This document shows positions 8,586 through 26,000 of a stretch of DNA of 64,000 nucleotides, piece by piece; position 1 is the stretch's first letter, and every line of letters begins with the position of its first letter. The stretch lies in sequence record NC_052658.1. One strand, given 5' to 3'. The translations under genes were made by a program, and so were the position numbers. Source of the DNA: Escherichia phage nepoznato. The notes under the pieces were generated by a model. That model did not search any database, was not told the DNA's origin, and was given only the letters and a program-made list of their open reading frames with translations.

Positions 8586-8610
8586 AGCCTCCTTCGGGAG
8601 GCTATTTTAT
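8586..8610 (+). terminator. Rho-independent terminator after terC
   Basis: Hairpin AGCCTCC-TTCG-GGAGGCT followed by ATTTTAT. Confidence 0.65.
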
Positions 8611-8621
8611 AGGAGAGACTT

Positions 8622-9214: not shown

Positions 9215-9593
9215 AACAAATCCTGCACAATACCAACAACCTCCTCAACAATACGCCCAACAAGGATCTGATGGAGATACAACTATTATCAACAATGGTG
9301 GCGGTTCTAGTAGTAGCGGTGTTGGTGAGTTTGCTACAGGTATGTTGTTAGGGCATATGATGAGCGGTGGTAGTAATCGTAGTGGCGGGGATTATAACGA
9401 TAACAGAACAATTATTAATAAACATTATAACACACCTAAACCGAAGACTAATTTTTATGGTAAGCCTAAACAAGAGACAAAAACTTATGAAAAGCCGAGA
9501 CAAACTTTTAAAACAAATAGTAGCTATACAACTCGTAAATCTTACAATAGCCCTTTAAGTAAAAAGAGTTCATCTCGTAGCAAGCGACGTTAA
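9156..9593 (+). CDS. Lipoprotein (signal peptide plus lipobox), Q/G/S-rich with a lysine-rich C-terminus
   Basis: MKKLALILIGCIFLTAC lipobox; GAGGA SD at 9143-9147; alternative ATG at 9141; low-complexity mature region. Confidence 0.55.
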   Translation: MKKLALILIGCIFLTACEDETNPAQYQQPPQQYAQQGSDGDTTIINNGGGSSSSGVGEFATGMLLGHMMSGGSNRSGGDYNDNRTIINKHYNTPKPKTNFYGKPKQETKTYEKPRQTFKTNSSYTTRKSYNSPLSKKSSSRSKRR

Positions 9594-9608
9594 TAAGGAG
9601 AAAAAACA

Positions 9609-10052
9609 ATGACAATTTCTATCCGTACTTCCATTACAGGTGTTAAAAGTTTGCCTAATGCTTTGCAAATTACACGCGCTTTGAGGGATACGTTCTCCGC
9701 TGTGGATGAGCATAAGATGCTTGATAATCTCTCAAATTGGCCTTATTTTCATTATTTTAAAAATGAAGACGACGAGTTTATAGATGCTGTTTCTTATGGT
9801 TATGATTTCGGTAAGGAGGTTTCTCCTGAAGAATTTGTAGCTATGGTGTTCCCAAACGGTTTGCCTACTCGCAGTAAACGTAAAAAAGGACCAAAAAACA
9901 AGAAACGTGCTACTAACAAAGCTACCATTTTCTTTACTGATGGCACACAATATACGATTAAAGATTTTGAAGAGGTATCTTATACAGCAGGTGGGAATCT
10001 TTCTTTCTACACCATCAAAAAAACAAAACCCTACGTTCAGCCATGTTTCTAA
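9609..10052 (+). CDS. Hypothetical protein
   Basis: ATG with GGAG SD; 147 aa; basic patch KRKKGPKNKKR. Confidence 0.45.
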   Translation: MTISIRTSITGVKSLPNALQITRALRDTFSAVDEHKMLDNLSNWPYFHYFKNEDDEFIDAVSYGYDFGKEVSPEEFVAMVFPNGLPTRSKRKKGPKNKKRATNKATIFFTDGTQYTIKDFEEVSYTAGGNLSFYTIKKTKPYVQPCF

Positions 10053-10206
10053 CATGATTGAAATGTTAGTAGAAGATATTGAAAGCGTGGCTGTGTTAGG
10101 TATGCATAAAAGCTTTTTAATTACAAATATTTCAGATTTCAGTGCACGTTTATCTGGCCCTGATTTTGAAGCCACGACCACGCATTTCACTTTTAAGGTG
10201 TAAGTT

Positions 10207-10797
10207 ATGCATACCGAGAGAGACTTGCAACTCTTGTGGTGGGAAGTGATGCAGGAAATAAAAGAAGATTTTCCTGTTTACTACAACATGTTACGTGAAG
10301 CAGGATATAAAGCTTGCGTTAGAAACAAAGTGAATAACTCTTTTGGTTGGTGCAATTACCGAGATAAGATTGTTGTTGTAAATTGGCACTTGCATAAGAA
10401 CTCCACAAGAGATATGATCGTGGATACAATGAAGCACGAAATTGCTCACGCTATTGATGGTTGTATGGGTAAGTTTAGTAGGCATGGTGCTCATTGGCAA
10501 AAACTGGCAGCAGAATTAGGGGCTAATCCTAAAGCCACTTCCAAAGAGCCGTTGAACCACGAATATAAATATGTTCTTGTTCTGGTAGATAGGTTTGCGA
10601 CAAGATGTGTTAGAGGTTATAATCGTAAACCTAATCGCATGTACCCAGGTAAGCAACCTAACATGTGGTTGAAATCAGATAAAGAAGGAACTGAAGGAAA
10701 ATTATGGTTGTATAAATGGGATGATTGGGTTAAAGTAGCTAAAGAGTACGGTGTTTCACCATATATAAGAGATGCAGAAGAGGAGAATGAAGAATGA
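10207..10797 (+). CDS. SprT-like zinc metalloprotease domain protein
   Basis: HEIAHAID (HExxH) in a SprT-like context, followed by ...HGAHW. Confidence 0.5.
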   Translation: MHTERDLQLLWWEVMQEIKEDFPVYYNMLREAGYKACVRNKVNNSFGWCNYRDKIVVVNWHLHKNSTRDMIVDTMKHEIAHAIDGCMGKFSRHGAHWQKLAAELGANPKATSKEPLNHEYKYVLVLVDRFATRCVRGYNRKPNRMYPGKQPNMWLKSDKEGTEGKLWLYKWDDWVKVAKEYGVSPYIRDAEEENEE

Positions 10798-11906
10798 CAA
10801 GTCCATTTTTAAAAGCAGCTACTGGTGGTCAGAAGAAGTCTGAAATGAGTGTATTCGCTGCAACAACAGATGCAAGTAAATCTGTATTCGCTCCAAGTGT
10901 GTTAGATGCCAGTCCTGTTTATGCACCAGCAGCACCGCAAGAAGTTCCAGTTTTGCCTGCTATGACCCGACAAGAGATCGAAGAGATTGGGGCAGAGGCA
11001 GGAACAACCTTGCGTTCCTTGAATGCCGAGGTATTAAAACATCAACGTAGTAATCAAGGCGATCAGATGAGTGAACGACTCACAGCTTTGATTAAACAGG
11101 CAAAACAACTTGATCCAAATTCTATTAAACAAAGCAAGGGTATTACTAAACTCATTAAAAAAGTTATGGGTATGAAAGAAGACCTGTTCGGGGAGTTTGA
11201 TAATGTTAATAACCGTATTGAAGAGTTGGTAAAGAACCTTCAAATGGATATTCGCAAAGAAGAAGATTCCTTGGTATATCTTGAAAAGCTACATCAAGCT
11301 ATTGGACAATATGCTGCAAGTTTGAACCGAGATATGCAGCTTCTAACAGCAACCTATGAAAAAGAAGAACAAGCTTTGGCTGCTCTTCCAGAAGATGCAG
11401 TAGAACAGCGACAAGTGATCCGAGATACTTTGGATCTTCTGGAGATTCGTATTGCAGATTTAAAAGCATTGCGCCTACTGTGTGTCCAAATGGGACCGCG
11501 TGTACAAGGTATGCAAAAAGTTTCTGCAAGCTTAATGCGATCTGCGCGTAACATAGTAAATAATGTTATTCCTGCTTACTCTGCTAACTTCTCAATGTAT
11601 ATCGAGAGTTTACGTCAAATGAAAGCAGCAGAGACGCAGAATAACGTTCTTGATGAATTTAACCTGGCAATTAAACTGGGTAGCGATCTTGCCACACAGA
11701 ATCAGATCGAAGCAGCAGCACTGGCTAACCGTCAAGTGTTGGATATTGAAACTCTGCGTCACGATCAGGAAAACTTGGTTAAGATGTTGGAAGAAACTAA
11801 CCGCATCAATACGGAAGCCCGTGCTGCTCGTGTTGATTATATTAATGAAGTTCAATCTCTGGAAGACGGGATGGTAGCTGCTGTGAAACGAGGGCTTGGT
11901 AAATGA
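10794..11906 (+). CDS. Coiled-coil protein, tentatively TelA-like (toxic anion resistance family)
   Basis: 370 aa, largely helical/coiled-coil; size and context (terC/terD neighbourhood) fit TelA; no diagnostic motif verified. Confidence 0.3.
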   Translation: MTSPFLKAATGGQKKSEMSVFAATTDASKSVFAPSVLDASPVYAPAAPQEVPVLPAMTRQEIEEIGAEAGTTLRSLNAEVLKHQRSNQGDQMSERLTALIKQAKQLDPNSIKQSKGITKLIKKVMGMKEDLFGEFDNVNNRIEELVKNLQMDIRKEEDSLVYLEKLHQAIGQYAASLNRDMQLLTATYEKEEQALAALPEDAVEQRQVIRDTLDLLEIRIADLKALRLLCVQMGPRVQGMQKVSASLMRSARNIVNNVIPAYSANFSMYIESLRQMKAAETQNNVLDEFNLAIKLGSDLATQNQIEAAALANRQVLDIETLRHDQENLVKMLEETNRINTEARAARVDYINEVQSLEDGMVAAVKRGLGK

Positions 11907-12100
11907 GAATCCGTATCTATATAATTGATGAAGACATTGGTGTCCGTTATGATGACGAAAAACGATTCGCACCGATGGGAGGCATATATCCCCCAAGTGT
12001 TCTAGCAGTTTGTCGTGATTGTTATATTTATGAAGGTTGTCGTAACTTCCGTAAATTCCAACTACTTGCAGATATTGACTTCAACGAGGAGGAGGAGTAA
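11903..12100 (+). CDS. Hypothetical small protein
   Basis: Start overlaps the upstream stop (translational coupling); 65 aa; acidic C-terminus. Confidence 0.4.
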   Translation: MRIRIYIIDEDIGVRYDDEKRFAPMGGIYPPSVLAVCRDCYIYEGCRNFRKFQLLADIDFNEEEE

Positions 12101-12271
12101 TGAAAATATTACGAGTGAATATTGAAACTGCTTGGTGTGGATGCAATGAGGTTGTGGATATCGAAATTGAAGATGATATGTCTCAAGAGGATATAGAAGA
12201 TCTTGCACACGAAACCTTTCAGGACTATTGTAATTACGGGTTTCATATTTTAGAGGAGGAAGAAGATGTTT
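12100..12271 (+). CDS. Hypothetical small acidic protein (57 aa, below the ORF-track cutoff)
   Basis: ATG at 12100 preceded by GGAGGAG; translation MKILRVNIETAWCGCNEVVDIEIEDD...; stop at 12269-12271. Confidence 0.4.
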
Positions 12272-12469
12272 AACTACGATAACGATCCTAATATTATCCA
12301 GTTAACCCGACAAGAACTGATCACAATCATTGAAGATGCTTTTATTGATGGTTGGAATACACAAGATAATGATTGGGGTGGACCCGAAGCTTTTCTGGAA
12401 CATCATAAAACGTATGGAGACTTTTGTGAAACCACTGTAGCTCTTGATAATCTGAAGGAGGGTTTGTAA
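12266..12469 (+). CDS. Hypothetical small protein
   Basis: GAGGAGGAAG SD; 67 aa. Confidence 0.4.
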   Translation: MFNYDNDPNIIQLTRQELITIIEDAFIDGWNTQDNDWGGPEAFLEHHKTYGDFCETTVALDNLKEGL

Positions 12470-13029
12470 TGGGTTGTTTTAGTTTTTTGTGTAAGGAATC
12501 TGGAAAAGCTGCCCTTTCTACTTCTTTCGACGGATCACCTTGTTATCTCTTTCTTTTGAAGGACGGTGTTGTTATTGAAGAGATGTATGGCAACTATGAT
12601 AGTTATGGTTGTGTTTTCTCTGGAAAGGAGGATGAAAATGGCGTTCGTGAACGGTTCGAATGGGCTATGGATTGGGGTAAGGTTTGTGATTTAATGCATT
12701 CCTCAAATCCAAGGGACGGTATTGCTATGGTGCTGGAAGAGTACTTTACAGGTGAAATCCCTACAGAACAATCTGACGGAGATCCTAATCAAGGTTGGGG
12801 TGATGGTGAAGAAGATCCAGATTGTTTTTTCAGCACAGAAAAGAATAAGTTTAAACGTGTTGACAACCCTTATCACAAAGTGCATAATACTCTCATTGAA
12901 ACAGAAGATGACAAGATGGAAATTGAAGAAGATCCTCTTGTAACACTTCCTATAAGTGAGTTACAAAAGATCACTAAGGAAGCTTACGATTTGGGCTTCA
13001 AAATTGGTAGAGGAGGTATGCGTGTTTAG
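12469..13029 (+). CDS. Hypothetical acidic protein
   Basis: Start overlaps the upstream stop; 186 aa; very acidic C-terminal half. Confidence 0.45.
   Translation: MGCFSFLCKESGKAALSTSFDGSPCYLFLLKDGVVIEEMYGNYDSYGCVFSGKEDENGVRERFEWAMDWGKVCDLMHSSNPRDGIAMVLEEYFTGEIPTEQSDGDPNQGWGDGEEDPDCFFSTEKNKFKRVDNPYHKVHNTLIETEDDKMEIEEDPLVTLPISELQKITKEAYDLGFKIGRGGMRV
12860..12888 (+). promoter_or_regulatory. Sigma70-like promoter (inside the 12469 gene) ahead of the first Ter cassette
   Basis: TTGACA (12860-12865), 17 nt spacer, CATAAT (12883-12888). Confidence 0.45.
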
Positions 13030-13300
13030 ATTCAATATTCAAGAAGAAAAGTGTCAGGATTTACCTATTGCTTTCGAAGATCTTGGCATAGGGGCCACAT
13101 TCATGTATTATGATGCCTATGAAGACGCAGGGTTGGATACATACCGTAACTTGGTGTTCATTAAAAATTCCACAAACAGTGCGATCTGTATTAATGGATC
13201 ACTAGCACAACGAGGCTATACTCATTGCATCCCGCCAGATACAAATATGGTGGAAGTAGATTTAGAAGTTACCAACATTACACTTAAGAAGGAGAAATAA
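13022..13300 (+). CDS. Small protein, paralog A of a duplicated pair (cassette 1)
   Basis: GTG start with AGGAGG at 13011-13016; about 35-40% identical by eye to the 14322 protein (shared FxIxxxK, DLxxGxTFxY, GLD, VxLxVTxITLK). Confidence 0.5.
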   Translation: MFRFNIQEEKCQDLPIAFEDLGIGATFMYYDAYEDAGLDTYRNLVFIKNSTNSAICINGSLAQRGYTHCIPPDTNMVEVDLEVTNITLKKEK

Positions 13301-13301
13301 T

Positions 13302-14096
13302 ATGTCCGAGAAAATCAGCCTGAAAAAACGTCAAGAAAACCTTGCTTTCTCTCTGAAAAAGAATAAGAACCTGAATGAAGGTAAGATTGTTCTTCGTGTA
13401 GCATGTGCTCTAGATATTTCTGGTAGTATGCATGGTCTATATTCTAGTGGGGTAGTGAGTGATTTTGTAGGTAAACTGCTTCCTTTTGGTATGCTGTTCG
13501 ACGATAATCAACAAATTGATATGTGGGCCTTCAATACGAGTTCCCAAGAGCTTACTCCAGCAACAGCAGATGTTTACGATGACTATGTTGGTAAATGTAT
13601 GCGTAATGTTCGTATCGGAGGTGGAACAAATTACGCCCCTGTAATGGCGGATATCTACGATGAGTATTTTGGCACTGTTACTAAATATATTACCACTAAA
13701 CAAGTGGTACAAGAGGAGGCTCCAAAGAAAGGCTTCTTTAATCGTCTGCTTGGTAAAACTGAAACAGTGTCTGTAGAGCGTGAAAAAGTTGTAGCTGTAT
13801 CTGAACCAGGTGCTGACGTTACCCCTGGTGTTGTATTCTTCCAGACGGATGGTGAGAATGGTGATCCTAGTGCTGTTCGTCGTCTTATCGAAGAGAATAA
13901 GAATAAACCTATTTATTGGTTCATGGTTGGCGTTGGTAATGAGAAGTTCGGCTTCCTGAAAGAACTGGCAAATGCTTATGATAATGTTGGTTTTATTGGC
14001 ATTAAAGATTTAGACTTGACAGATTCAGAGCTTTATGACAAACTCTTATCTGAAGAGTTCGGAGAGTGGGTTGTTAAAGTAGGTGCTAAAAAATGA
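13302..14096 (+). CDS. vWA-domain protein with a TerD-type N-terminal ISLKK peptide (TerF/TerY-like)
   Basis: N-terminus MSEKISLKK...FSLKK, then vWA MIDAS motif LRVACALDISGSM (DxSxS). Confidence 0.55.
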   Translation: MSEKISLKKRQENLAFSLKKNKNLNEGKIVLRVACALDISGSMHGLYSSGVVSDFVGKLLPFGMLFDDNQQIDMWAFNTSSQELTPATADVYDDYVGKCMRNVRIGGGTNYAPVMADIYDEYFGTVTKYITTKQVVQEEAPKKGFFNRLLGKTETVSVEREKVVAVSEPGADVTPGVVFFQTDGENGDPSAVRRLIEENKNKPIYWFMVGVGNEKFGFLKELANAYDNVGFIGIKDLDLTDSELYDKLLSEEFGEWVVKVGAKK

Positions 14097-14341
14097 TCGA
14101 CGAGCTTGCCTCTCAAGTCATAGAAAATTATTGGCGCGAGAGAGAAGCTTTCATTATGCGCAGTCTCAAAGAGTATTTCATTGGGACTGTGCGAATGGAA
14201 GATATTGTAAGTAGAGTAGAGATTCATGTATGGCCCGATTATGAAGAATGGGTTGACAAAGAAAATGAAAATGCTATAATTCTTCGTATATACAAACCGG
14301 AGATAACATTAGGAGGAAGAAGTGTTAAACTTCGAAATTGA
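14093..14341 (+). CDS. Hypothetical small protein
   Basis: Start overlaps the upstream stop; 82 aa; contains the next cassette's promoter. Confidence 0.35.
   Translation: MIDELASQVIENYWREREAFIMRSLKEYFIGTVRMEDIVSRVEIHVWPDYEEWVDKENENAIILRIYKPEITLGGRSVKLRN
14253..14280 (+). promoter_or_regulatory. Near-consensus sigma70 promoter ahead of the second Ter cassette
   Basis: TTGACA (14253-14258), 16 nt spacer, TATAAT (14275-14280). Confidence 0.55.
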
Positions 14342-14591
14342 TGAGCAAAAAGTAAATAAACGATGCCTTACCATTAAAGATTTGGATGTAGGAGATACTT
14401 TCGTCTATGAAAATGCATTTGACGAAAATGGTTTAGACCTTAGTGAAATCATTGTTTATTTAAAAGTAGATGATGGGGAAAATGATTGTTCTGCTGTAGA
14501 ACTAAACCATCATGCACAATTAGTATCAATCCAAAACACATCTAAGCTTTTGGAAGTAGAATTGACTGTAACTGGTATTACACTTAAATAA
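14322..14591 (+). CDS. Small protein, paralog B of the duplicated pair (cassette 2)
   Basis: GTG start with AGGAGG at 14311-14316; paralogous to the 13022 protein. Confidence 0.5.
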   Translation: MLNFEIDEQKVNKRCLTIKDLDVGDTFVYENAFDENGLDLSEIIVYLKVDDGENDCSAVELNHHAQLVSIQNTSKLLEVELTVTGITLK

Positions 14592-14606
14592 TAGAGGAGA
14601 CAAAAG

Positions 14607-15209
14607 ATGACTGATAAAATTTCCCTGAAAAAAGGCTCTAGCGAAAAAATTTCCCTGAAGAAAGTTGCTCCGGCTCTGAAAGAACTGCGCCTGGAATTCT
14701 CTTGGAAATCTGATTCTAAACTGGATCTGGATGTAAGTGCACTGGTTTGTCGTCACAATGCCGCTGGCAATCCTGAAATGCTGTCTGCACGTCACCTGGT
14801 TTGCTATGCTAACAAGTTTGATCCTGAACGTTCTACCTTCGCTGGTGACGATGTTCGTGATGGAACTGGCAGCATGGAGCAGATTGATATTACTCTGGCT
14901 AAAATCTCTCCTGATGCACAAGAGATTGCCTTTGTTCTGACCATTGATGATGATACAGGTCTGAAACGTTTTGGTCATGCTTCTGAAGGTATGCTTAAAA
15001 TCTTTGACTCCGAGCGCAATGTGGAAATTCTGGATTTTGACTTCCTGGCTCCTGAAGTAGCTGGCAACACAATCTGCCACGTGGCTTCCTTGGTTCGTGA
15101 AGATGGGGAATGGAAGCTGAAAGCATATGGTGTAGGTAAAGCTGGTCTGGATATTTGTGATGTGGTCATGGCCTTCGGTGGTAAAAAAGAATGGTATGAA
15201 TGTCCATAA
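14607..15209 (+). CDS. terD: TerD-domain protein
   Basis: N-terminal double repeat KISLKKG...KISLKK, then TerD-family motifs DLDVSAL, GDDVRDGTGS, EWKLKAYGVGKAG; codon usage strongly biased to CTG/CGT/GGT. Confidence 0.8.
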   Translation: MTDKISLKKGSSEKISLKKVAPALKELRLEFSWKSDSKLDLDVSALVCRHNAAGNPEMLSARHLVCYANKFDPERSTFAGDDVRDGTGSMEQIDITLAKISPDAQEIAFVLTIDDDTGLKRFGHASEGMLKIFDSERNVEILDFDFLAPEVAGNTICHVASLVREDGEWKLKAYGVGKAGLDICDVVMAFGGKKEWYECP

Positions 15210-15308: not shown

Positions 15309-15830
15309 TTGCTGATAAAAAACTTTGTAACAGTTGCGTTACTATCCTTAACTGCTTTTACATTTACACCTGTTGTGGCGAAAGCCGAAGCTGCAAACGT
15401 AAAAACCGCTAAAGTAGTTCACAAATGTACAAAGCAATATAATGATAAAATTCTATTAGCTTGTGCAATTTACGCAGAAGGTCGCGGTCTGGGTAAAAAA
15501 GGAATGAATGCCGTTGGGAATGTGGTAATCAACAGAAGAAATGATACCTACTTCCCTAACACAGTCAGAGGAGTCTTGTTCCAGAAAGGACAATTCTCAT
15601 ATGCGAAAACTTTTAACGTAACAGAGAAAGATAAGTGGCAGGAAGCAAAAGCAATAGCGGAGCGTTTACTTTATCTAGAGAAACATTTTCCTGAATTGCG
15701 GTCTGTTTTAGATGTTACTAAAGGTGCTCTATACTTCAAGAAACGGAATATAAAGACACACTGGGAACGTGATATGCGTCTTGTTTATCGAGATAAAGTG
15801 CATGGTTTCTATCTACCAAAGGGGAGTTAA
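15309..15830 (+). CDS. Secreted cell-wall hydrolase, SleB-like
   Basis: Signal-peptide-like N-terminus (LLSLTAFTFTPVVAKA), then CAIYAEGRG...GMNAVGNVVINRR...TVRGVLFQKGQFSY typical of SleB/Hydrolase_2; TTG start. Confidence 0.6.
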   Translation: MLIKNFVTVALLSLTAFTFTPVVAKAEAANVKTAKVVHKCTKQYNDKILLACAIYAEGRGLGKKGMNAVGNVVINRRNDTYFPNTVRGVLFQKGQFSYAKTFNVTEKDKWQEAKAIAERLLYLEKHFPELRSVLDVTKGALYFKKRNIKTHWERDMRLVYRDKVHGFYLPKGS

Positions 15831-16531: not shown

Positions 16532-17095
16532 ATGATTTATTATATTACTCCCTATCTGACAGGAAATATCGGCAAGGCTATCAATGAAGCCATTGCCGTT
16601 CTTCCAGATGATAGTTGGGTGTGTTTAAGAGATACCGATACAATGTTCCTCCTACCTGATCAACCATCTATGCTTGAAGAGCTTGTTATGTCAAACCCGC
16701 CTTTTGATGTAATAGGTGCAACTTGTAACAGGTTAGGCAGTGGTTATCAACTTTTCTCTAACCAAATTAACGATGATCCAGATATTCTAAACCATATAGA
16801 ATATGCTAAGATTGCAAGAGAATATCATAAAGTGAGTGTTGAAGAAGTTCCTTTCGGAACACCTCTAGCAGGTTTCTTTTTGCTTTTTAGAAAATCCTTG
16901 TGGAATGAAATTCCTTTCGAAGAAAAATCTATCCAATTCGACTTAATTTTCTCTCGCACTTTACATGAAAAAGGAAAGAGGTTAGGATTGATGCGGGGAA
17001 TGTATCTATTTCACATTTACAGATTAGGTCAAACAAATCCTCAACGGTCTATACATCATTTATTACACTGTCACGATCACAGTAAAACTATTTAG
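16532..17095 (+). CDS. Putative glycosyltransferase (GT-A-like, tentative)
   Basis: GGAGGGGAG SD; Rossmann-like N-terminus and DTD motif; 187 aa. Confidence 0.3.
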   Translation: MIYYITPYLTGNIGKAINEAIAVLPDDSWVCLRDTDTMFLLPDQPSMLEELVMSNPPFDVIGATCNRLGSGYQLFSNQINDDPDILNHIEYAKIAREYHKVSVEEVPFGTPLAGFFLLFRKSLWNEIPFEEKSIQFDLIFSRTLHEKGKRLGLMRGMYLFHIYRLGQTNPQRSIHHLLHCHDHSKTI

Positions 17096-17103
17096 GAGAG
17101 AAA

Positions 17104-17787
17104 ATGGAAAATATTAAAATCGGAGTGGGTGTTATCACTGTAGGTGTCCGTCCACTTAAAGACTACCTTGTAACAGATCCACGTGCAGATTTTCGAGTAT
17201 TCAACGATCCAGACCGTAAAGGTGTAGCTTATGCCAGGAATGAACTTATGCACCAGTTTTATGAAGAAGGTTATGATTATTGGTTTATTTTTGACGACGA
17301 TTGTTACCCAGTCATGGAAGGATGGGAAACATACTTTGTAGATCAAGCTGTTTCTGGAGGATGGGATTTCTTTGGTATGCCGGAGTACTTCAAAGATAAA
17401 GTTGTTGGAAGCAAAGGAGAAGTTATTCTCTGGGAACTTGCAATGTGTCAATTTGCAATGTATTCTCGTGCCGTTGTTGAAAAGATGGGTTATTTCCGCC
17501 CTTACACTCACGGTTATGGTTTTGAAGATGCCGAATGGGGACACCGTTTGAAAGCTGCTGGTTTGAATCATGGTATTCAGGCAACACCTTGTCCACTTCG
17601 TATCATGGCTTATATCCACCCAGACGATGTTTTTGGAAACAATCCTATGCCTTTTGCTAATCTGACAAAAGAAGAGAAAGAAGCTGCTATCGAGATTAAC
17701 TGGGAAGAATATAAAGCATCTTTAGAGGATATTAAAAATGGGAAAATCCGAATTTCCTATGAGGAGGCACTAGCACATGTCAAATAA
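17104..17787 (+). CDS. Glycosyltransferase, GT-A fold (DxD)
   Basis: YDYWFIFDDDCYP (DxD) and GFEDAEWGHR. Confidence 0.45.
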   Translation: MENIKIGVGVITVGVRPLKDYLVTDPRADFRVFNDPDRKGVAYARNELMHQFYEEGYDYWFIFDDDCYPVMEGWETYFVDQAVSGGWDFFGMPEYFKDKVVGSKGEVILWELAMCQFAMYSRAVVEKMGYFRPYTHGYGFEDAEWGHRLKAAGLNHGIQATPCPLRIMAYIHPDDVFGNNPMPFANLTKEEKEAAIEINWEEYKASLEDIKNGKIRISYEEALAHVK

Positions 17788-18724
17788 AAAATGGTCTAAA
17801 CTAAAAATTGATGCAAAACCTCACAGCGGTTGTGACTATCATCGTATTGTTATGCCATTTAACAACAATAATATTCAACCTAAGAAAGATGTTGTTGTGT
17901 TTAACCGTATCCATTCTAAAGGTGCAGAATACGTTTTATCTTTGAAACGTCAAGGTGTTAAGATTGTTGTAGATTTAGATGATTTCTACCAACTTAATCC
18001 AGAACATTATTTAGCAAGTCTATACGAGTCAAACACTCATGCTATTGTAGCTATGGTTAAGCTTGCTGATGTGGTTATTGTGACTACGGAATATTTGGCA
18101 TATAAGATCCGTCACTTAAATAGGAATGTTGTTGTGATCCGAAATGCGCTTCCTTTTGATAGCGGACAATTTACTTTGTCAAATGACCGTTCATCCGGTA
18201 CCCCTATTGTATGGGCTGGAGGTGCTAGTCACGAACCCGATTTACGACTAGTCTCTAACACTTTTGATGATGAACTTCTTACTATTGCGGGGTATGAAGC
18301 TTCGCAGAGTATCACAGGGCAAGAGTGGATTAAAATCCGTAGAAATTTACCAAATGCCAAATATAAAGCTGCTGTAAAAGATTTAGATAATTACATGAGT
18401 GTTTACGAAAGTCATGCTATTGCTATAGCTCCTTTGGTAGATAATGATTTTAATAATTGTAAAAGTAATCTCAAAATCCTTGAAGCTGGGGCAAAAGGTA
18501 TTCCGATTGTTTGTTCTAAGGTATTACCTTATTTTAACCCTGTAGATGCTCGCGCTGTTGCTTACGCAGAGAATAAAGCTGAATGGCATTACGAAATTGT
18601 TAAGCTTCTTCGCAATCCGAACTATCGGGAAGATCGCGGCTTGTTCTTAGCGGAACATGTTCGAACACATTATAATCTGGCAGATGCAAACGAATTGCGA
18701 CGCCAGGTTATTGAAAGCTTGTAG
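17777..18724 (+). CDS. Glycosyltransferase, GT-B fold (GT1-like), paralog 1
   Basis: C-terminal NNCKSNLKILEAGAKGIPIVCS resembles the GT1 E-x7-E/EAxAxG motif; N-terminus HSGCDYHRIV. Confidence 0.5.
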   Translation: MSNKKWSKLKIDAKPHSGCDYHRIVMPFNNNNIQPKKDVVVFNRIHSKGAEYVLSLKRQGVKIVVDLDDFYQLNPEHYLASLYESNTHAIVAMVKLADVVIVTTEYLAYKIRHLNRNVVVIRNALPFDSGQFTLSNDRSSGTPIVWAGGASHEPDLRLVSNTFDDELLTIAGYEASQSITGQEWIKIRRNLPNAKYKAAVKDLDNYMSVYESHAIAIAPLVDNDFNNCKSNLKILEAGAKGIPIVCSKVLPYFNPVDARAVAYAENKAEWHYEIVKLLRNPNYREDRGLFLAEHVRTHYNLADANELRRQVIESL

Positions 18725-18731
18725 GTGAAGT

Positions 18732-19676
18732 ATGGGACAAATAATTCTTGACAATCGTAACGGAATCAATTATAGTGTCTGCGATTTCCATAGGGTAGTG
18801 CTGCCTTACTCAAGGCAGTTCTCTTCACAACCTAAACACAACGTTTTCGTTTTTAACGGAGTGCCAACAAAAGGTAAAGAGGGCTTTTTAGCCCTTAAAA
18901 ACCTAGGCTTTAAAATGGTTATGGATTTGGATGACTCTTTAGTTATTCCAAAAGGACACATGTTAGAAGGTATTTTTGAATCAGGTATTCGTGAACATTT
19001 AAAATGGTTTTTAGAGCACAGTGATCTTGTTACAACTACGACACCTGTCTTGCAAGTTGAACTTTCACAATATAATGATAATGTGCACATAATCCCTAAT
19101 GGACTTCCTTACGATGAAGGTCAATTTGTGTTGACCCGTGATCGCTACTCCAAAACTCCATTAGTCTGGGCTGGAAGTGAAACACATAAACAAGATTTGG
19201 CTATCTTACCCGATTTTGGTAAAGATCTTACAATATGTGGTTTTCGTAGGGATTCTGAAGTTTTAAGTAGTCGTGAATGGTCTTTAATCAGAGAAAATGT
19301 AGCACCAACTTGTGTTTATGAAGGTGTAAGACCATATGCCAACTACATGGAATCTTACGATGGTCATCAAATCAGTCTTGCACCATTGATCGATAACGTG
19401 TTTAATAATGCAAAAAGCAATCTTAAAATTCTTGAGGCAGGTGCTAAGGGTTTACCTTTAATCTGCTCTCCTCGTGAGAATTATCATACACAAGAGTTTA
19501 AAGATTTGTTATTCTTTGCTGAAACACCTTCCGAGTGGAAAGATATTACGGAATACTTATTAAGTGCTCCCGATGTTTGCATGGAGAAAGGATTAGCATT
19601 AGCTAAGTATGTCAGGACTCATTATCACATTGATGTGTTGAATGAGCGTCGTAGACTTTTATTTGAGGAGCTATAA
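18732..19676 (+). CDS. Glycosyltransferase, GT-B fold, paralog 2
   Basis: Collinear with the previous protein (CDFHRVVLP..., NNAKSNLKILEAGAKGLPLICS); tandem duplicate. Confidence 0.5.
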   Translation: MGQIILDNRNGINYSVCDFHRVVLPYSRQFSSQPKHNVFVFNGVPTKGKEGFLALKNLGFKMVMDLDDSLVIPKGHMLEGIFESGIREHLKWFLEHSDLVTTTTPVLQVELSQYNDNVHIIPNGLPYDEGQFVLTRDRYSKTPLVWAGSETHKQDLAILPDFGKDLTICGFRRDSEVLSSREWSLIRENVAPTCVYEGVRPYANYMESYDGHQISLAPLIDNVFNNAKSNLKILEAGAKGLPLICSPRENYHTQEFKDLLFFAETPSEWKDITEYLLSAPDVCMEKGLALAKYVRTHYHIDVLNERRRLLFEEL

Positions 19677-19954
19677 TGATTAACACTTTTGATTTTGAAT
19701 ACACCACTCGTAACGGGAAAGCCTTGGTCGTGGAGGTGGATTACTATTATGAAGAACCTAATCCACTTTCTCGTGAAAGCGATTGGGATTACCACGGAGG
19801 GCTTTTAATTGACGGTATTCGTTTTTATGAAGGATCTACAGAAGTTTTTGAAAAAGATTTAAATGTAACTGTAGCAGAAATTGCTTTCCAATTTAGAAAG
19901 CACATGGAAGAACTAGAAGCAGAATATATGATGGAGACTAACGAACCATTTTAA
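19676..19954 (+). CDS. Hypothetical protein
   Basis: ATG overlapping the upstream stop; 92 aa. Confidence 0.4.
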   Translation: MINTFDFEYTTRNGKALVVEVDYYYEEPNPLSRESDWDYHGGLLIDGIRFYEGSTEVFEKDLNVTVAEIAFQFRKHMEELEAEYMMETNEPF

Positions 19955-19966: not shown

Positions 19967-21745
19967 GTGTCGCACATTATAACTAAATATGGATTTGATG
20001 TTGATCTTAGCAAGGAAGGACATACAGGTTGTCCGCGCTGCATGAAAAATGGCAAGGATCGCTCTCGTAATAACCTGATGGTTTACGGATTAGATTCTAA
20101 TGGAGAGCATAAAGGTGCTAAGTGCTTTGCGTGTGAATACACTATTCCTAGCGTAGAATGGTTACGAGAAAATGGTGAAGTTTTAGAAGAAGAGGAGGAG
20201 ATTGTGGGTTCGGAATTTAATAAACAGATTCATCGTAAAATTGTTCAAGAAACATCAACCAACCCACGTGGTTATCGAGGCATTAAAGAAAAAGTTTCAT
20301 CTTTCTATGGTGTTCGTTATGAATACCGTCAGGAAGGGGATCAGATGGTAGTAGAAAGTTGTTTATATCCAACTACCATCGGTAAAGAATTGGTTGGTTT
20401 TAAGCGTCGTATTCATCCTAAAGATTTCAGTAAACCTATTGGTCAAGTAGGTAAAGATGTAGATCTTTTTGGACAAATTCGTTTTGCAGACCGTTCTCAT
20501 ACTGTTGTAATTACAGGTGGTGAACACGATGCTCTGGCAGCTTATCAAATGCTATCTGAAAACTTGGACAGTAAATATGAGCTTCCAGCCGTAGTAAGTG
20601 GCACAACTGGTGAAACCAGTATGTATAAACAAGTTCAGGCACAATATCCTTTCTTTGAAAAATTTAAGAAGATTATTGTTTGCATGGATAACGACAAAGC
20701 AGGTAACGAGGCATTTGAAAATATTGTTAAGGTGCTGCCTCGTAACAAAGTCTACCGTATGCAGATGGATCTTAAGGATGCCAATCAGTATCTGGAAGAA
20801 GGTCGTGCAAAAGATTTCGTAAAAGCTTTTTGGAGTGCTCGTCTATACACCCCAGCAGGTGTTTATGCTTCTAATGTCTTGTATGAAGCTGCATTGGAAT
20901 GCTTGGAATCCAAGATGATTACCTTGCCTCCTTTTATGCGTGTTGCTGCAAATATGTTGGGTGGTGGTTTAGTAGAGGAAGAGATTACAGTCATCCTGGC
21001 AAAGACCAGTATCGGTAAAACTTTGATGGTGAACGAGATCACCAAACATATTATTGTTGCACACCCAGAACATACCCTAGGTATTCTGTCCTTGGAAGCA
21101 ACTTATAAAAAGTATTCTCGTAACCTGTTATCCTCTTTCCTACACATTCCTCTACACAGGAAAACACCAGAAGAGAAATTTCAAATCTTGGAAGAGAATA
21201 AAGAAAAAATCCTAGATTTTTACGAAAGAGAAGATGGATCACCACGTTTTTATGTGTGTGATGATCGTGGAGCAGATGTGGAGTCTATCAAAGAAAAAGT
21301 TTTGGAGATGATCATCTATTTTGGAGTAACAATTCTTGTTATCGACCCTTATTCTGATTTGCTTTCTGGTATGGATGTTCAAGCCCAGGAAGAGTTAGCA
21401 ACATGGTTGAAGCGAATCATGAAAGAGTATGCTATAACTATTATCGTCATCTCACACGTTAAGAAGTCAGCTAACGGTGGCAATGAGCACTTAACAGAGG
21501 ACGATGCAATGGGTAGTAGTTTCTTGGCTAAAGGTGCTGGTATTACCTTGGCTTTGGAACGAGATAAGGCTGCTGAAGATCCTGTAGAACGTAATACAAC
21601 TCATTGCTTTATCCTAAAAAACCGTGAGTTCTCGGAGACTGGTCCAGCAGGGCAGTTTTACTATGACATTAGAACTGCAACTCTTCACGACAAAGAGCAG
21701 TATTTTAACAACCCTGCTAACTTACCTACGGATAGCAACTACTAA
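19967..21745 (+). CDS. Bifunctional DNA primase/helicase (T7 gp4-like)
   Basis: N-terminal zinc ribbon (CPRCMK...CFACEY), TOPRIM-like VITGGEHDALAAYQM / CMDNDKAGNEA, helicase Walker A AKTSIGKT and Walker B VIDPYSDL; GTG start with AGGAG SD. Confidence 0.8.
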   Translation: MSHIITKYGFDVDLSKEGHTGCPRCMKNGKDRSRNNLMVYGLDSNGEHKGAKCFACEYTIPSVEWLRENGEVLEEEEEIVGSEFNKQIHRKIVQETSTNPRGYRGIKEKVSSFYGVRYEYRQEGDQMVVESCLYPTTIGKELVGFKRRIHPKDFSKPIGQVGKDVDLFGQIRFADRSHTVVITGGEHDALAAYQMLSENLDSKYELPAVVSGTTGETSMYKQVQAQYPFFEKFKKIIVCMDNDKAGNEAFENIVKVLPRNKVYRMQMDLKDANQYLEEGRAKDFVKAFWSARLYTPAGVYASNVLYEAALECLESKMITLPPFMRVAANMLGGGLVEEEITVILAKTSIGKTLMVNEITKHIIVAHPEHTLGILSLEATYKKYSRNLLSSFLHIPLHRKTPEEKFQILEENKEKILDFYEREDGSPRFYVCDDRGADVESIKEKVLEMIIYFGVTILVIDPYSDLLSGMDVQAQEELATWLKRIMKEYAITIIVISHVKKSANGGNEHLTEDDAMGSSFLAKGAGITLALERDKAAEDPVERNTTHCFILKNREFSETGPAGQFYYDIRTATLHDKEQYFNNPANLPTDSNY

Positions 21746-22278: not shown

Positions 22279-23073
22279 TTGAGCAAGTTGAACACACTTG
22301 ATCAATATTACACTAACCCCGCTTATGCGGGGTTCTTATGTGATAAGATCAAAGAAATTTTTGGAGAGGAAGCTAACTACGTAGAACCATCTGCGGGAGA
22401 AGGGGCTTTCTCTTCTTGTTTTAAAAACATAACTTCTTTTGATATTGACCCTAAGTTTGAAGATTGTATTGAGGCAGATTTTTTAGCTCAATCTGTTGAG
22501 TCTGTTGGCAGTGTAACTGCTTTTGTCGGTAATCCTCCGTTTGGAAAAAATGCTAGTCTTGCCATTAAGTTCTTTAACCATTGTGCTGAAATGTTGGATA
22601 ACGAAGGTGGTATTTGTTTTATCTTGCCTCGCACATTTCAAAAAATCTTTTTTGCACACAAACTAAATCCCCACATGCATCTTCTTTACGAAGAAGAATG
22701 TCCAAAAGGATCTTTTATTCTTCATGGAGAACCTTGGGATGTTCCTTGTGTATTCCAGATATGGATTAAACGCAACGAGAAGCGTTCTCCCGTTGTTTTA
22801 GGAGAAAATCGACTATTCGTATTAGGCAACAGTAAAGACTACGACATAGCCGTTAGGAGAGCGGGAGCAAGTGCAGGTAAAGTGTTATCAGAAGAGGATT
22901 CTTTATCTGAAGCATCTACCTATTTTTTAAAAGCCTTGACTTCTGATCTTAAAACGCGTATCATTGAGGCTTACCCGTTACTTAAAGCTGAAGCTAGTAA
23001 AACTGCGGGAGTAAGAAGTTTAAGTTTAAAAGAACTTCAGTGGGTTCTGGAGAACATTAGAAAGGAGGAATAG
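22279..23073 (+). CDS. N6-adenine DNA methyltransferase (NPPF motif)
   Basis: Motif I-like EPSAGEGAF and motif IV GNPPFG; TTG start with AAGGAGG SD. Confidence 0.6.
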   Translation: MSKLNTLDQYYTNPAYAGFLCDKIKEIFGEEANYVEPSAGEGAFSSCFKNITSFDIDPKFEDCIEADFLAQSVESVGSVTAFVGNPPFGKNASLAIKFFNHCAEMLDNEGGICFILPRTFQKIFFAHKLNPHMHLLYEEECPKGSFILHGEPWDVPCVFQIWIKRNEKRSPVVLGENRLFVLGNSKDYDIAVRRAGASAGKVLSEEDSLSEASTYFLKALTSDLKTRIIEAYPLLKAEASKTAGVRSLSLKELQWVLENIRKEE

Positions 23074-26000
23074 TGAGTAAGTTTACATGGGATATTGAAG
23101 CAAACGGATTGTTGAATAATGATACTATTGATTATTTAGCTAGTCCTTATCGTCTCAAAGACACATTTCAAATGCACTGTATTGTCTTAGAGAACCATGA
23201 AACAGGAGAAATAGTAGCTTTCCACGATGGCCCTAAATACATTTTTGATGGTCGTCCTTATGAAGAGTCAGATGATAAATATACATATGTTCTTAAAGAA
23301 TATGTGGCGCAAGATTACACACATTTTCAACTAAAAGATTTCCCAGATTTTATTAATCATGAAGGTTATTTTAAAGACAAGCCTGAATATTTGGTTGAAA
23401 TGGCTGTGGCACACAACGGTATCAACTATGACTGGTTGGCTACAAAACTGTTTTATGGATTAGATTACAGTGTTAAATATAACACGTGGGGTAAAAGCAA
23501 GGTAAAACTTATTGACTCCTTAATTTTGAGTAAAGTGTTAAACCCAGATCGAAAGATTGAGGGCAAATCAGGACATAGTTTGGCAGCACTTTCTCGAAAG
23601 GCAGGCGGGGATGTAAAAATAGATTTCCGTAAAGAGATTCCAGAAGAAGATCGATTTAAGACTTTTGCTGCGGATATGCTTTATTACTGTATCTATGATA
23701 ACAAAGCCAACACAAGTGTATATAATTACCTCATGGAAGAATGGGGTGATTATGATAAATGGGAAGGTCCATTTGAACTTGAACAACGTGTAGCAGACAT
23801 TATCACGCGCCAGGAACACCGTGGGTTTGCTTTTAACATGAAGCAAGCAGAAGAGAACCTTGCTTTTTTGGATGCAGAAATGGAACGTCTTCGTTTACTC
23901 GTTGAGCCTATTTTGCCACCTAAACCAGCAACAAAAGGTTATCTTAAAGCTTTTATTCCGCCTAAATTGCAAATTAAAAAGAACCTCGAACCAACTAACC
24001 ATATGATCAATTTTGCTAAAAAACATGATGGTCATTTGGAAGAGAGGGATGGCGATTGGTGGTTAGTTATGTTGGGGAAAGAGTGGAAACTGCCAGTTGC
24101 AGCAGATGAGCCTTTGTGTGATCCTAATATCCCTGCAACATTGAACGATACAACCCATATTAAAAACTGGCTTGTAGGATTAGGTTGGGTACCGTCTGAA
24201 TATAAAGATAAAGACTTGACTCTTAAATCTGGCACCAAGATTAAAAAGAGTGAGGAAGAACTTCAGAAAGGTATTCGAGCTTACATTGAGCAAACTCTAT
24301 CTTCTAATTTTTGTCAGGATCGTTGTGATCATCTGGAGTGCACACCGGAAACCTTGGAAAGGAAGATTCAAGAGCGTATAGCAAAAGGTAAAGGTCGCGG
24401 TCTTAAAGTATTGACTAACCCATGTTTTACCAAAGGTCAGGAAAAAGAAATTTGTCCTAACCTGCAAGCTTTGGGTGAGAAATTTCCTTATGCTACACAG
24501 ATTGTAGAATACTTAACGTATAAACACCGTAGGAACTCTATTTTAGGTGGTGGTGCCGATTGGGAAGAAGACGAAGAAGATCAAGAATACAACAAAGGTT
24601 TCTTGGCAGCAGTTCGTGCAGATGGACGTATACCTACGCCAGCGGCTACATGCGATGCAGCAACCTCTCGTATGAAGCATAGGTCTGTAGCCAATATTCC
24701 TCGTGTTACCTCTTTGTTTGGATGGCAGATGCGTAACCTGTTTGGTGTAGAGGTTCCTAAATACTTCCAGATTGGTTATGACTTTGATTCATTAGAGGCG
24801 AAGATTGAGTCGCATTATACGTGGAGATATGATAATCCTGATCATGCTTACTGTAATGCACTTCTGTTAGAAAAACCAAACGATGTGCATACTATGATGG
24901 CAAAACATATTACTGATATTATTGGACGTAAGTTTGAACGTGGTCCTGCTAAGAGCGTTAAATACGGTTGTGTACCTGTAGATAATACGGAAGTGTTAAC
25001 AAGAACGGGTTGGAAGAAACGTAAAGATCTTTTTGTAGGGGATGAAGTTTTATCTTATAATACTCACACCGCTCTTTACGAATATACCCCTATTCTTAAG
25101 CTGTGGGACTATAACGATGCAGAAGTTGTCTCTCTCGGTAACAAGTGGTTCAAAGTAGAAGTTACTAACGATCATATGTGGATTAACGCACAGAGAAAAA
25201 CTATGCGATCAGATGGTAACAATGTTAAGTATATGCAAGTGGAGCGTAGATCTACAGAGGATTTAAACTCGGAGTCAAACATAATTGCAGCAGGGCGATC
25301 TGGTGTGGTGTCTACTCTAACAGTGGAAGAAGGTCGTTTCTTAGGCTGGCTTCTTTCGGATGGCTACTATAAGTGGTCTGGCAAAGCCAGAAATAAAGTA
25401 ATGGGTATTACAGTCACGGTAGATCAAGATGAGAAAAAATTCTTAGAAGAAGCACGTGAGGCTGTGGGAGATATCTTCACATTTGACGAGTATGTATCTG
25501 GAACGATGCATTCATTACGTCCTAATAAGAGTCAGTTTAGGGAATTTTTGACTAAATGTGGCGTTGAAGTGGGTCAAAATAAGCACGAAGTGGACTGGTC
25601 TACATTAATTGCTAATCAAGGTCAAGCTGTGTTGGAAGCATTCTTAGAGGCATTCTGGATGGCAGATGGTCATAAGCGTCCAAACGGCAGTCTTGTTATC
25701 CGTCAAAAGAAAGGTAAGATTAGCGACGCTGTTTCTTTGGCTATCAATATGACAGGTAATATTGCGTATGGTTCTGTTCAAAAAGATGGCATGTTAACGT
25801 TGGCAATCAATAACGGACAAACTATTTCAGGACAGAGGTTGACAAAAGCTTTTTCACGAGTAACAGATGTATTCTGTATCTCAACCAAGAATGAATCTTT
25901 TGTTATGCGTCAGAATGGTTTTATCACGTTGACAGGTAACTGCACGTACGGCGCTCAAGCAGACAAGGTTGCTAAAACAATTGGTAGCGATAAATACACA

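Follow-up and report, generated by a model that had tools for sequence, protein, structure and literature searches.

The 64-kb window analysed here, that is, the whole stretch of DNA under study, comes from a Phapecoctavirus, a phAPEC8-like E. coli myovirus, and the isolate shows ~97-98% identity to phAPEC8, the reference genome of the genus (NC_020079). We identified four ORFs on the + strand, at 16532-19676, where the sequence-only reading of this DNA had also placed them. These ORFs, denoted GT1 to GT4, and their neighbours are arranged as follows.

15309-15830: Hydrolase_2 cell-wall hydrolase, upstream flank of the glycosyltransferase (GT) block
16532..17095, + strand: GT1, 187 aa, compact GT-A glycosyltransferase with a DxD motif (D34/D36)
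17104..17787, + strand: GT2, 227 aa, GT-A-type glycosyltransferase with DDD at 64-66 and YGxED at 138-142
17777..18724, + strand: GT3, 315 aa, GT-B glycosyltransferase, paralog of GT4, with a basic N-terminal (acceptor) domain
18732..19676, + strand: GT4, 314 aa, GT-B glycosyltransferase of the GT4-family type, acidic
19676..19954, + strand: acidic 92-aa ORF whose start overlaps the GT4 stop (ATGA); PHROG 4240, unknown function
19967-21745: primase-helicase, downstream flank of the GT block

Eight nucleotides separate GT1 from GT2, GT2 and GT3 overlap by 11 nt, a gap of 7 nt precedes GT4, and GT4 overlaps the next ORF at the ATGA; between the flanking genes there are also three small ORFs upstream of the block and one, the 92-aa ORF, downstream of it. 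All four genes are already annotated as "glycosyltransferase" in RefSeq, and their products are almost certainly genuine members of this enzyme class. No 19-residue window in GT1-GT4 has transmembrane-type hydrophobicity, and GT1, GT2 and GT4 are acidic proteins (net charge between -5 and -13). The sequence-only reading had described four adjacent soluble glycosyltransferases, two GT-A-like and two tandem GT-B, located between a lysis-type hydrolase and a primase-helicase; the ORFs, their motifs, the GT3/GT4 identity given below and the lack of a membrane segment bear out the first part of this description, and the positions of the flanking genes bear out the second.

The block lies in a replication-type transcription unit, apart from the late structural genes. 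In a promoter/terminator scan of 15.0-23.2 kb, in which counts were no higher than in shuffled sequence, no + strand terminator-like site was detected inside the GT block. A few kb upstream, and co-directional with the block, is a Ter-type neighbourhood comprising PRTase_3, a HAD-like hydrolase, Macro, TerC, TelA, vWA-TerF and TerD. The four-gene block is syntenic across Stephanstirmvirinae (Phapecoctavirus and Justusliebigvirus), and the 92-aa ORF is syntenic in PaulScherrer. The latter shows no similarity to the ORF that follows the GT-B gene in a Serratia prophage carrying related genes (see below) and thus is probably not part of the portable cassette.

GT1 has a single Rossmann-like alpha/beta/alpha GT-A fold, and all 23 homologs compared, the most distant at 45% identity, retain D34 and D36 of the DxD motif. 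The only family matches were to PHROG 14179 and 26101, with no Pfam match of note, no NCBIfam match and no sequence relative in the PDB. The only close viral relative of GT1 is fused into gp42 of Cellulophaga phage phi17:1, which lies within the head module and adjoins a protein of the Methyltransf_24 family, also the Pfam family of the methyltransferase domain of mycobacteriophage Che8 gp108.

GT2 is predicted to be a GT-A-type, GT2/GT7-like glycosyltransferase in which D64-D65-D66 and Y138-G139-x-E141-D142 are invariant. It belongs to PHROG 2456 (E 1e-78), and its Pfam matches all score below the gathering threshold (TAGT, 19.3 against 27.5; Glycos_transf_2, 14.1 against 23.3; Glyco_transf_7C, 13.6 against 23); across the family, TAGT was matched by 11 of 16 members and Glycos_transf_2 by 5 of 16. 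Comparison of the GT2 profile with the N-terminal domain of mycobacteriophage Llij gp96, whose own Pfam matches are borderline GT-A (Glycos_transf_2/Glyco_transf_7C), gave a probability of 99.1% and an E-value of 7e-19 over 195 columns, approximately the full length (hhalign). Relatedness between GT1 and GT2 is not detectable, and a second duplication, giving rise to this pair, was accordingly rejected.

GT3 and GT4 are 41% identical (E 5e-78) and therefore can be regarded, from their sequences, as tandem paralogs, in agreement with the earlier reading. Both adopt the GT-B fold of two facing Rossmann domains. GT3 belongs to PHROG 7162 (E 4.5e-149), and its basic N-terminal (acceptor) domain has a pI of 9.5. 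GT4 is just above the Pfam cutoff for Glyco_trans_1_2 (25.2 bits, cutoff 25), and GT3 is below the cutoffs for Glyco_trans_1_4 and Glyco_trans_1_2 (22.7 and 20.4 bits). Of the donor-binding EX7E motif of retaining GT4-family enzymes, the second Glu is conserved almost without exception (E235, within 'LEAGAKG'), but the residue eight positions before it is not Glu; the invariant residues are K228 and K232 instead. The C-terminal domain of GT3/GT4 has weak PDB-sequence matches to TreT and PglA, and single-sequence and profile searches of PDB sequences with GT1, GT2 and GT4, as well as an NCBIfam scan of the three proteins, returned nothing specific and no family, respectively. Among the structural neighbours of the GT-B pair are many enzymes with lipid-linked acceptors and, for GT4, the small-molecule glycosyltransferases BshA, sucrose-phosphate synthase, TreT and the tetrahydrobiopterin glycosyltransferase.

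Comparative sequence analysis indicates that the block is a portable cassette, of which the GT2 and GT-B core, with or without GT1, recurs across phages that are not related to one another, most often next to genes for the terminase, portal or capsid. In the Serratia prophage, GT1-GT2-GTB is located between the lysis genes and the terminase, and in lambdoid phages, GT2-GTB is downstream of Q. In phage L013, the GT2/GT-B pair is found between TerL and the portal, decoration and capsid genes; in L029, L035, L037, L038 and L039, it lies just upstream of TerL, portal or MCP; and in L031, it is near the tape measure gene. An RmlB-like NDP-sugar dehydratase/epimerase is encoded within the cassette of L027, an observation that supports dTDP-rhamnose-dependent glycosylation. 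In small phages, accessory genes commonly cluster upstream of the terminase, so the argument from the neighbourhood of the cassette is suggestive at most. An exposed acceptor, such as a decoration protein, common to phAPEC8 and the cassette-bearing L013 was not found by Pfam or BLASTP searches.

A complete dTDP-L-rhamnose pathway is encoded in phAPEC8 by gp166-169, ~70 kb from the GT block, and all four proteins score above the NCBIfam equivalog cutoffs (rmlB, 431 against 365; rmlA, 465 against 361; rmlC, 225 against 156; rmlD, 237 against 224). The 64-kb window contains no Rml gene and no thymidylate-synthase-like gene; from the ~97-98% identity to phAPEC8, we infer that the rml genes are present in this isolate as well. 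An RmlC homologue (>=60% identity) occurs in 128 records, compared to ~125-130 for each GT, in the same phage groups, the comparison being one of totals only, and is present in both genera, Phapecoctavirus and Justusliebigvirus. Rhamnose probably serves as a donor for the cassette.

The reading that we consider best, albeit tentatively, is that the four enzymes assemble on virion proteins, step by step, a short glycan that probably contains rhamnose. GT1-GT4 would form a cassette of soluble, nucleotide-sugar-dependent glycosyltransferases, GT1 and GT2 being of the GT-A, metal/DxD type and GT3 and GT4 of the GT-B, GT4-family type, and each would add one sugar in turn; two successive sugar additions by the GT3/GT4 paralogs are plausible. 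The product would be an oligosaccharide of up to four residues on an acceptor other than DNA, with at least one step probably using dTDP-L-rhamnose from the phage's own RmlABCD, encoded elsewhere in the genome. With this supply, glycosylation would not depend on the sugar metabolism of the many hosts that these phages infect; Phapecoctavirus and Justusliebigvirus phages ranked among those with the widest host ranges in a recent collection of biocontrol phages (PMC10844046). The likeliest acceptor, itself a tentative assignment, would be at least one structural protein of the virion (capsid, decoration or tail/fibre), and the outcome would be a surface glycan coat comparable to that of mycobacteriophages. 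The order of action, the acceptor and the donor use of GT1-GT4 are inferred. Counting against a virion target are the location of the block in a replication-type unit, the lack of a shared candidate acceptor and the GT-B neighbours with lipid-linked acceptors. Among searchable papers, none directly demonstrated glycosylation of virion proteins in a Stephanstirmvirinae phage, and no experimental work on these glycosyltransferases or on glycosylated E. coli phage virions was found.

The main rival, which we consider possible but on the unlikely side, is that the soluble enzymes work on the cytoplasmic side of the inner membrane and transfer rhamnose or other sugars to lipid-linked intermediates of the LPS core, O-antigen, enterobacterial common antigen (ECA) or colanic acid. 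The Rml enzymes would also use dTDP-4-keto-6-deoxyglucose, from which the ECA sugar Fuc4NAc is made, and the phage would alter its own receptors, resulting in superinfection exclusion or in progeny being kept off cell debris. A broader form of this idea, which we regard as doubtful, is that the cassette and RmlABCD together reprogramme the sugar metabolism of the host envelope while the phage grows lytically: dTDP-4-keto-6-deoxyglucose would be diverted from ECA, the phage's own primary receptor, and LPS and ECA intermediates would be rhamnosylated, such that infected cells and debris stop adsorbing phage, superinfection is excluded and progeny are protected by receptor editing, with the same two- to four-gene cassette playing this role in many unrelated phages. 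However, no flippase, polymerase, GtrA/B/C-type or other membrane protein is encoded in or beside the cassette, the enzymes themselves lack membrane segments, and GT1, GT2 and GT4 are acidic. Moreover, Stephanstirmvirinae are strictly virulent, and remodelling of outer-membrane glycans would be slow within one lytic cycle, and the placement of the cassette amid head genes, in L013 and Cellulophaga phi17:1, is unusual for conversion genes. The comparative context favours a virion-protein target over modification of the host surface.

Improbable in our view is an acceptor of another kind: a host protein modified during takeover, a small molecule, such as the nucleoside-like product predicted for the Ter/PRTase/HAD gene set, or an oligosaccharide, free or lipid-linked. 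The Ter-type neighbourhood lies a few kb upstream of the block and reads in the same direction, a vWA-TerF gene is found upstream of the L027 cassette too, and the small-molecule enzymes among the GT4 structural neighbours also favour this reading. Nevertheless, no Ter genes accompany the cassette in the other phage backbones that were examined, the presence of four different glycosyltransferases points to an oligosaccharide and not to one single modification, and there is no specific similarity to known protein-toxin glycosyltransferases.

Glycosylation of modified DNA bases was one of three kinds of target that the sequence-only reading put forward without preferring any. In this scenario, a base in phage DNA that is hydroxymethylated, or activated in another way, would be glycosylated, perhaps rhamnosylated, with an anti-restriction or anti-defence role as in the glucosylation of 5-hmC in T-even phages. 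The scenario is unlikely given the evidence assembled here; bulk DNA is very probably not the target. Phi92-like phages of the BASEL collection, isolates other than this phage that belong to the sister genus and carry the same four-GT block, are 'exceptionally susceptible' to restriction-modification systems despite their dTDP-sugar machinery (PMC8594841; echoed in PMC10844046), and they are sensitive to Druantia III-A, which T4 glucosyl-hmC blocks. The hydroxymethylase that would prepare the acceptor base, a ThyA-family dCMP or dUMP enzyme, was found neither in the window, as the earlier reading had noted, nor in phAPEC8: the sole thymidylate-synthase-like gene there, gp156, resembles the ThyX type only weakly (31.1 bits; cutoff, 87.9), and no hydroxymethylase or TET/JBP product is annotated among the 307 features of NC_020079 (TET/JBP by annotation only). 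The window strongly avoids restriction sites (observed/expected: GTAC, 52/207; CCGG, 20/56; CTGCAG, 0/14.7; CCATGG, 0/8.6), and five DNA methyltransferase genes are annotated in the phAPEC8 record. Lambdoid and other small phages carry the cassette as well, with no nucleotide-modifying gene seen in the flanks examined. Furthermore, the acidity of GT1, GT2 and GT4 argues against a DNA acceptor, the TAGT and PHROG 842 matches are limited to the generic DxD region, and GT4-family enzymes outscore AGT and BGT in structural comparison; specific similarity to AGT, BGT or another proven DNA glycosyltransferase was not found. The repeated suggestion in the literature that DNA is rhamnosylated in these phages is therefore not supported by the available evidence.

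Glycosylation of the virion, if it takes place, would be of practical interest, as Phapecoctavirus and Justusliebigvirus phages are under development for therapy and biocontrol. A rhamnose-containing glycan coat on the particles would affect antibody recognition, clearance and adhesion to mucus and surfaces, as reported for glycosylated mycobacteriophages, and would be, as far as we could find, the first such case among phages of Gram-negative bacteria. This work also defines a small, portable cassette of GT2 and GT-B, with or without GT1, that is found in many unrelated phages and, with two to four genes that can be expressed in E. coli, represents a tractable system for acceptor identification.

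Among the known systems, T-even phages glucosylate DNA with the dCMP hydroxymethylase gp42 and alpha- and beta-glucosyltransferases, using UDP-glucose, whereas the phages considered here also have GT-A enzymes and a dTDP-6-deoxyhexose pathway but no hydroxymethylase, are restriction-sensitive, avoid restriction sites in the window and share the cassette with lambdoid phages. Seroconversion by prophage glycosyltransferases is exemplified by GtrABC of P22 and Shigella phages and by the prophage-encoded TarP of S. aureus. Unlike the Gtr systems, the GT block lacks the membrane proteins GtrA (flippase), GtrB (bactoprenol glycosyltransferase) and GtrC, with no Gtr-type Pfam family detected in the block or its immediate neighbours, and the phage is virulent; where temperate phages carry the cassette, it adjoins late or packaging genes rather than an integrase or att site.

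Virion glycosylation loci of mycobacteriophages, as cited from Freeman et al. 2023 in PMC11256854 and PMC12363180, include Che8 gp108-110, Llij gp96/gp98 and Corndog gp38, and Che8 gp110 is described as essential for capsid glycosylation (PMC12363180). Llij gp98 is 85% identical to Che8 gp110, and gp96 lies two genes upstream of this ortholog, a position that suggests a role of gp96 in virion glycosylation. Both the mycobacteriophage and the coliphage loci are phage-encoded clusters of several soluble glycosyltransferases, GT2 is homologous to the N-terminal domain of Llij gp96, and the relative of GT1 adjoins a protein of the Che8 gp108-domain family, Methyltransf_24. No direct homology was detected between GT1, GT2 or GT4 and Che8 gp108, gp109 or gp110 (for gp110, GT1 and GT2 gave no BLASTP match, and GT1 none by profile either); the mycobacteriophage link runs only through Llij gp96. 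The coliphage cassette differs in having no homolog of the GT25-like gp110 (Che8 gp110/Corndog gp38), gp108 or gp109 and in including GT-B enzymes, which are absent from the Che8 and Llij loci examined. Moreover, the phage considered here is a virulent 150-kb myovirus of a Gram-negative host with its own dTDP-rhamnose pathway, and virion glycosylation is proven in the mycobacteriophages, whereas here it is a prediction. The machineries for capsid and fibril glycosylation in giant viruses, such as chlorovirus PBCV-1 and Mimivirus, include virus-encoded rhamnose synthesis. The likeness to these viruses lies in the combination of virus-encoded synthesis of a rhamnose nucleotide sugar with several cytoplasmic glycosyltransferases, which would make the virion glycans independent of the host.

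The glycosyltransferase genes of Escherichia phage nepoznato belong to a cassette, consisting of GT2 and a GT-B gene with or without GT1, that is portable over unrelated phages, and this is the main new result of our analysis. The phage is a member of the genus Phapecoctavirus (phAPEC8-like virulent E. coli myoviruses, subfamily Stephanstirmvirinae), and the window is colinear with positions 128,726 to 68,279 of phAPEC8 (NC_020079), in reverse complement. The sequence-only reading had placed four consecutive glycosyltransferase genes at 16532-19676, between a lysis-type hydrolase and the primase-helicase, and both the coordinates and the setting hold:

Glycosyltransferase genes of the window
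16532-17095, + strand: GT1, GT-A-type, ORF of 187 aa
17104-17787, + strand: GT2, GT-A-type, ORF of 227 aa
17777-18724, + strand: GT3, GT-B, ORF of 315 aa
18732-19676, + strand: GT4, GT-B, ORF of 314 aa

Successive genes are spaced by an 8-nt gap, an 11-nt overlap and a 7-nt gap, and a 92-aa ORF follows GT4 with an ATGA overlap at the junction. Genes 5' of the block include three small ORFs and a Hydrolase_2-type cell-wall hydrolase (15309-15830), and those 3' of it include the primase-helicase (19967-21745), an N6-adenine methyltransferase-like gene and the DNA polymerase. Deposited genomes match the segment closely: identity is 97.7-98.3% for the best 30, and 63 records fall in the 95-99% range. 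The bare observation of four glycosyltransferases is thus correct yet already known: the phAPEC8 counterparts, gp071-074, are named "glycosyltransferase" in RefSeq, and the Rml pathway is likewise in print. Our analysis adds structural confirmation of the enzymes, including GT1, which lies outside every curated family.

Several neighbouring features were also observed. The 'endolysin' at 15309-15830 (+) is Hydrolase_2/SleB-like (E 1.5e-17), has a signal-peptide-like start (MLIKNFVTVALLSLTAFTFTPVVAKAEA) and sits in a replication-type transcription unit, not with a lysis cassette; phAPEC8 carries a separate T4-lysozyme-like gene at another site. The DNA polymerase ORF (23073-26642, +) encodes 1189 aa versus 865 aa in phAPEC8, and about 1 kb of it (about 24968-25956), containing the LAGLIDADG-like motif LGWLLSDGYY, has no phAPEC8 counterpart. 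This insertion is an intein, present or absent among close relatives; the ortholog in the BASEL phage PaulScherrer is annotated as intein-containing. Finally, 4720-15209 (+) is a Ter/Tel-type gene neighbourhood in a virulent phage:

Genes of the Ter/Tel-type neighbourhood
5327-5983, + strand: HAD-like hydrolase
5976-6803, + strand: ComF-like PRTase_3
6818-7291, + strand: Macro domain
7605-8579, + strand: TerC membrane protein
10207-10797, + strand: SprT-like
10794-11906, + strand: TelA
13302-14096, + strand: vWA-TerF
14607-15209, + strand: TerD

We take this neighbourhood to resemble the 'Ter-dependent stress response / nucleoside-like metabolite' system, reportedly predicted by Anantharaman, Iyer and Aravind in 2012. 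In L027, a distant relative among the metagenomic loci, vWA-TerF and a Band7 protein are also found 5' of the glycosyltransferase cassette.

GT1-GT4 are glycosyltransferases. GT2 carries two invariant motifs, DDD (64-66) and YGxED (138-142), and gives local, sub-threshold GT-A matches to Pfam TAGT, Glycos_transf_2 and Glyco_transf_7C; no relatedness between GT1 and GT2 was detectable on comparison. The tandem GT-B duplication proposed from sequence is borne out, as GT3 and GT4 are 41% identical (E 5e-78) and both keep the donor-site stretch KSNLKILEAGAKG. Similarly, a hydrophobicity scan of all four proteins found no membrane-type segment, in agreement with the earlier description of soluble enzymes. 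GT1, GT2 and GT4 are acidic (net charge -4.7, -13.0 and -8.5, respectively), and the basic part is confined to the N-domain of GT3 (pI 9.5, versus 5.8 in GT4).

Phages of the sister genus Justusliebigvirus, such as phi92 and PaulScherrer/Bas60, carry the block in synteny; it is reduced in some Klebsiella-infecting relatives, such as FKP3, with GT1 and one GT-B, the latter matched in three pieces. About 70 kb from the block, outside the window, phAPEC8 encodes RmlB, RmlA, RmlC and RmlD (gp166-169), all four over the NCBIfam equivalog cutoffs, and the phage should therefore make dTDP-L-rhamnose by itself, the obvious putative donor for at least one of the enzymes. RmlC homologues of at least 60% identity occur in 128 records from these phage groups, and each glycosyltransferase, tallied separately, in ~125-130. 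Olsen et al. had remarked on the pathway, speculating that hydroxymethylated nucleotides are rhamnosylated (PMC7552041). In L027 (IMG/VR 3300031372_000212), a gene at 8622-9686, inserted between GT1 and GT2, encodes an RmlB-like NDP-sugar 4,6-dehydratase/epimerase (phmmer E 1e-40; matches to Pfam Epimerase and GDP_Man_Dehyd), so that the cassette and 6-deoxyhexose synthesis are physically tied in this locus.

Unrelated phage backbones carry the most distant of the GT-B homologs. A prophage contig of Serratia sp. M24T3 has the order holins, endolysin, GT1, GT2, GT-B, HNH, TerS, TerL, capsid, portal (hhalign E 3e-60 for GT1 and 1e-54 for GT2), and lambdoid metagenomic contigs have Nin genes, Q antiterminator, HicAB, GT2 (E 8e-40), GT-B, lysis genes, terminase, portal. 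In the 45.8-kb contig L013, TerL is separated from the portal/decoration/capsid genes by GT-B and a GT2 homolog (E 5.5e-52). Scanning IMG/VR with the GT2 profile yielded 27 loci of variable composition:

Cassette composition in IMG/VR loci
GT1-GT2-GTB-GTB: 12 of 27 loci
GT1-(RmlB-like dehydratase/epimerase)-GT2-GTB: L027
GT1-GT2-GTB: L032
GT2-GTB-GT1: L031
GT2-GTB or GTB-GT2: L028-30, L035, L038, L039
GT2 alone: L033, L034, L037, L040, L041

GT2 and GT-B therefore form the conserved core pair, to which GT1 and the second GT-B are add-ons. The cassette lies just 5' of TerL/portal or head genes in L029, L035 (with MCP), L037, L038 and L039, and near the tape measure gene in L031; only L027, which is window-like, and L036 (flanked by PhoH, AAA ATPase and helicase) show a non-structural context. 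A different glycosylation island adjoins TerS in L014 (7227-10733; Logan SRR16123996 contig), comprising a distant GT-B relative of GT4, a protein of the Glycos_transf_2 family, a GT_PLOD-type glycosyltransferase and a DegT-type sugar aminotransferase. GT_PLOD is the family to which the collagen-lysine glycosyltransferases belong.

We propose that GT1-GT4 could act in series as soluble Leloir enzymes assembling a short glycan, four sugars at most, for which dTDP-L-rhamnose made by the phage Rml enzymes is probably one donor; the divergent N-domain pI of GT3 and GT4 suggests that their acceptors differ, as they would in successive steps. The most likely acceptor, on a tentative assessment, is one or more virion proteins. 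The main rival, a lipid-linked host envelope intermediate, is a doubtful though tangible possibility: ECA and LPS core glucose are receptors of these phages (PMC8594841), many structural neighbours of GT4 act on lipid-linked acceptors, and the cassette sites in temperate phages are classic moron positions, but membrane components are lacking and the phage is virulent.

Glycosylation of phage DNA appears improbable. The block is located among replication genes, GT2 has a 37-residue TAGT/PHROG 842 match around a generic DxD motif, and T4 AGT and BGT rank midway among the structural neighbours of GT4. However, Maffei et al. (PMC8594841) describe Vequintavirinae and relatives, the phi92-like phages among them, as "exceptionally susceptible" to RM defences "despite a putative dTDP glycosylation machinery", and we confirmed the same four-gene block in one BASEL phage of that set. 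Sensitivity to Druantia III-A, a system blocked by T4 glucosyl-hmC, is a further property of the subfamily. Nor was an acceptor-making enzyme found: the window has no ThyA-family hydroxymethylase, as the sequence-only reading had stated, and the genome-wide search for a dUMP/dCMP hydroxymethylase that it had proposed, run on the phAPEC8 annotation, returned none. The 'putative thymidylate synthase' gp156 of phAPEC8 (NC_020079 positions 45712-46710, outside the window; 332 aa) gives a weak ThyX-type match (31 bits versus a cutoff of 88, residues 22-176) and does not belong to the ThyA-family hydroxymethylases. Across the window, restriction sites are strongly counter-selected relative to a maximal-order Markov expectation, both 4-nt (observed/expected: GTAC 52/207, CCGG 20/56, GGCC 32/62, CTAG 86/150) and 6-nt (CTGCAG 0/14.7, CCATGG 0/8.6, CGATCG 0/6.4), the pattern expected of DNA visible to restriction enzymes. 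Furthermore, lambdoid and other small phages carry the cassette as well, with no nucleotide-modifying gene in the flanks examined, and all the enzymes but GT3 are acidic. A small-molecule acceptor, one candidate being what the nearby Ter/PRTase/HAD genes produce, or a host protein is similarly unlikely; the cassette occurs without these genes in the other backbones examined. We reason that the likely target shifts from DNA to virion proteins or envelope glycan, a shift that is new here, in a cassette of medical relevance.

The proposed virion protein glycosylation would have a parallel in a known system. Among deposited phages, the only GT2 relatives outside its own group are glycosyltransferases of >300 Llij/Boomer-type mycobacteriophages (Cheoctovirus, cluster F); the N-domain of Llij gp96 matches the GT2 profile over 195 columns (probability 99.1%, E 7e-19). 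Two genes away, Llij gp98 is 85% identical to Che8 gp110, reported as essential for capsid glycosylation (PMC12363180), and glycans are reported on capsid proteins of Che8 and Rita (PMC11256854). GT1 has a single close viral relative, the C-terminal half of gp42 from Cellulophaga phage phi17:1 (35% identity, TM-score 0.87). The gp42 gene lies inside the head module beside a Methyltransf_24 protein, and Methyltransf_24 is also the family of the Che8 gp108 methyltransferase domain. The suggested ties of GT1 and GT2 to proven virion glycosylation are those of homology and position only; GT1, GT2 and GT4 show no resemblance to Che8 gp108-110. Because the defining GT25-like enzyme of the mycobacteriophage system is absent from the cassette, membership of that system is not established; by analogy, mycobacteriophage virion glycosylation would nevertheless be the closest functional counterpart of the phage cassette.
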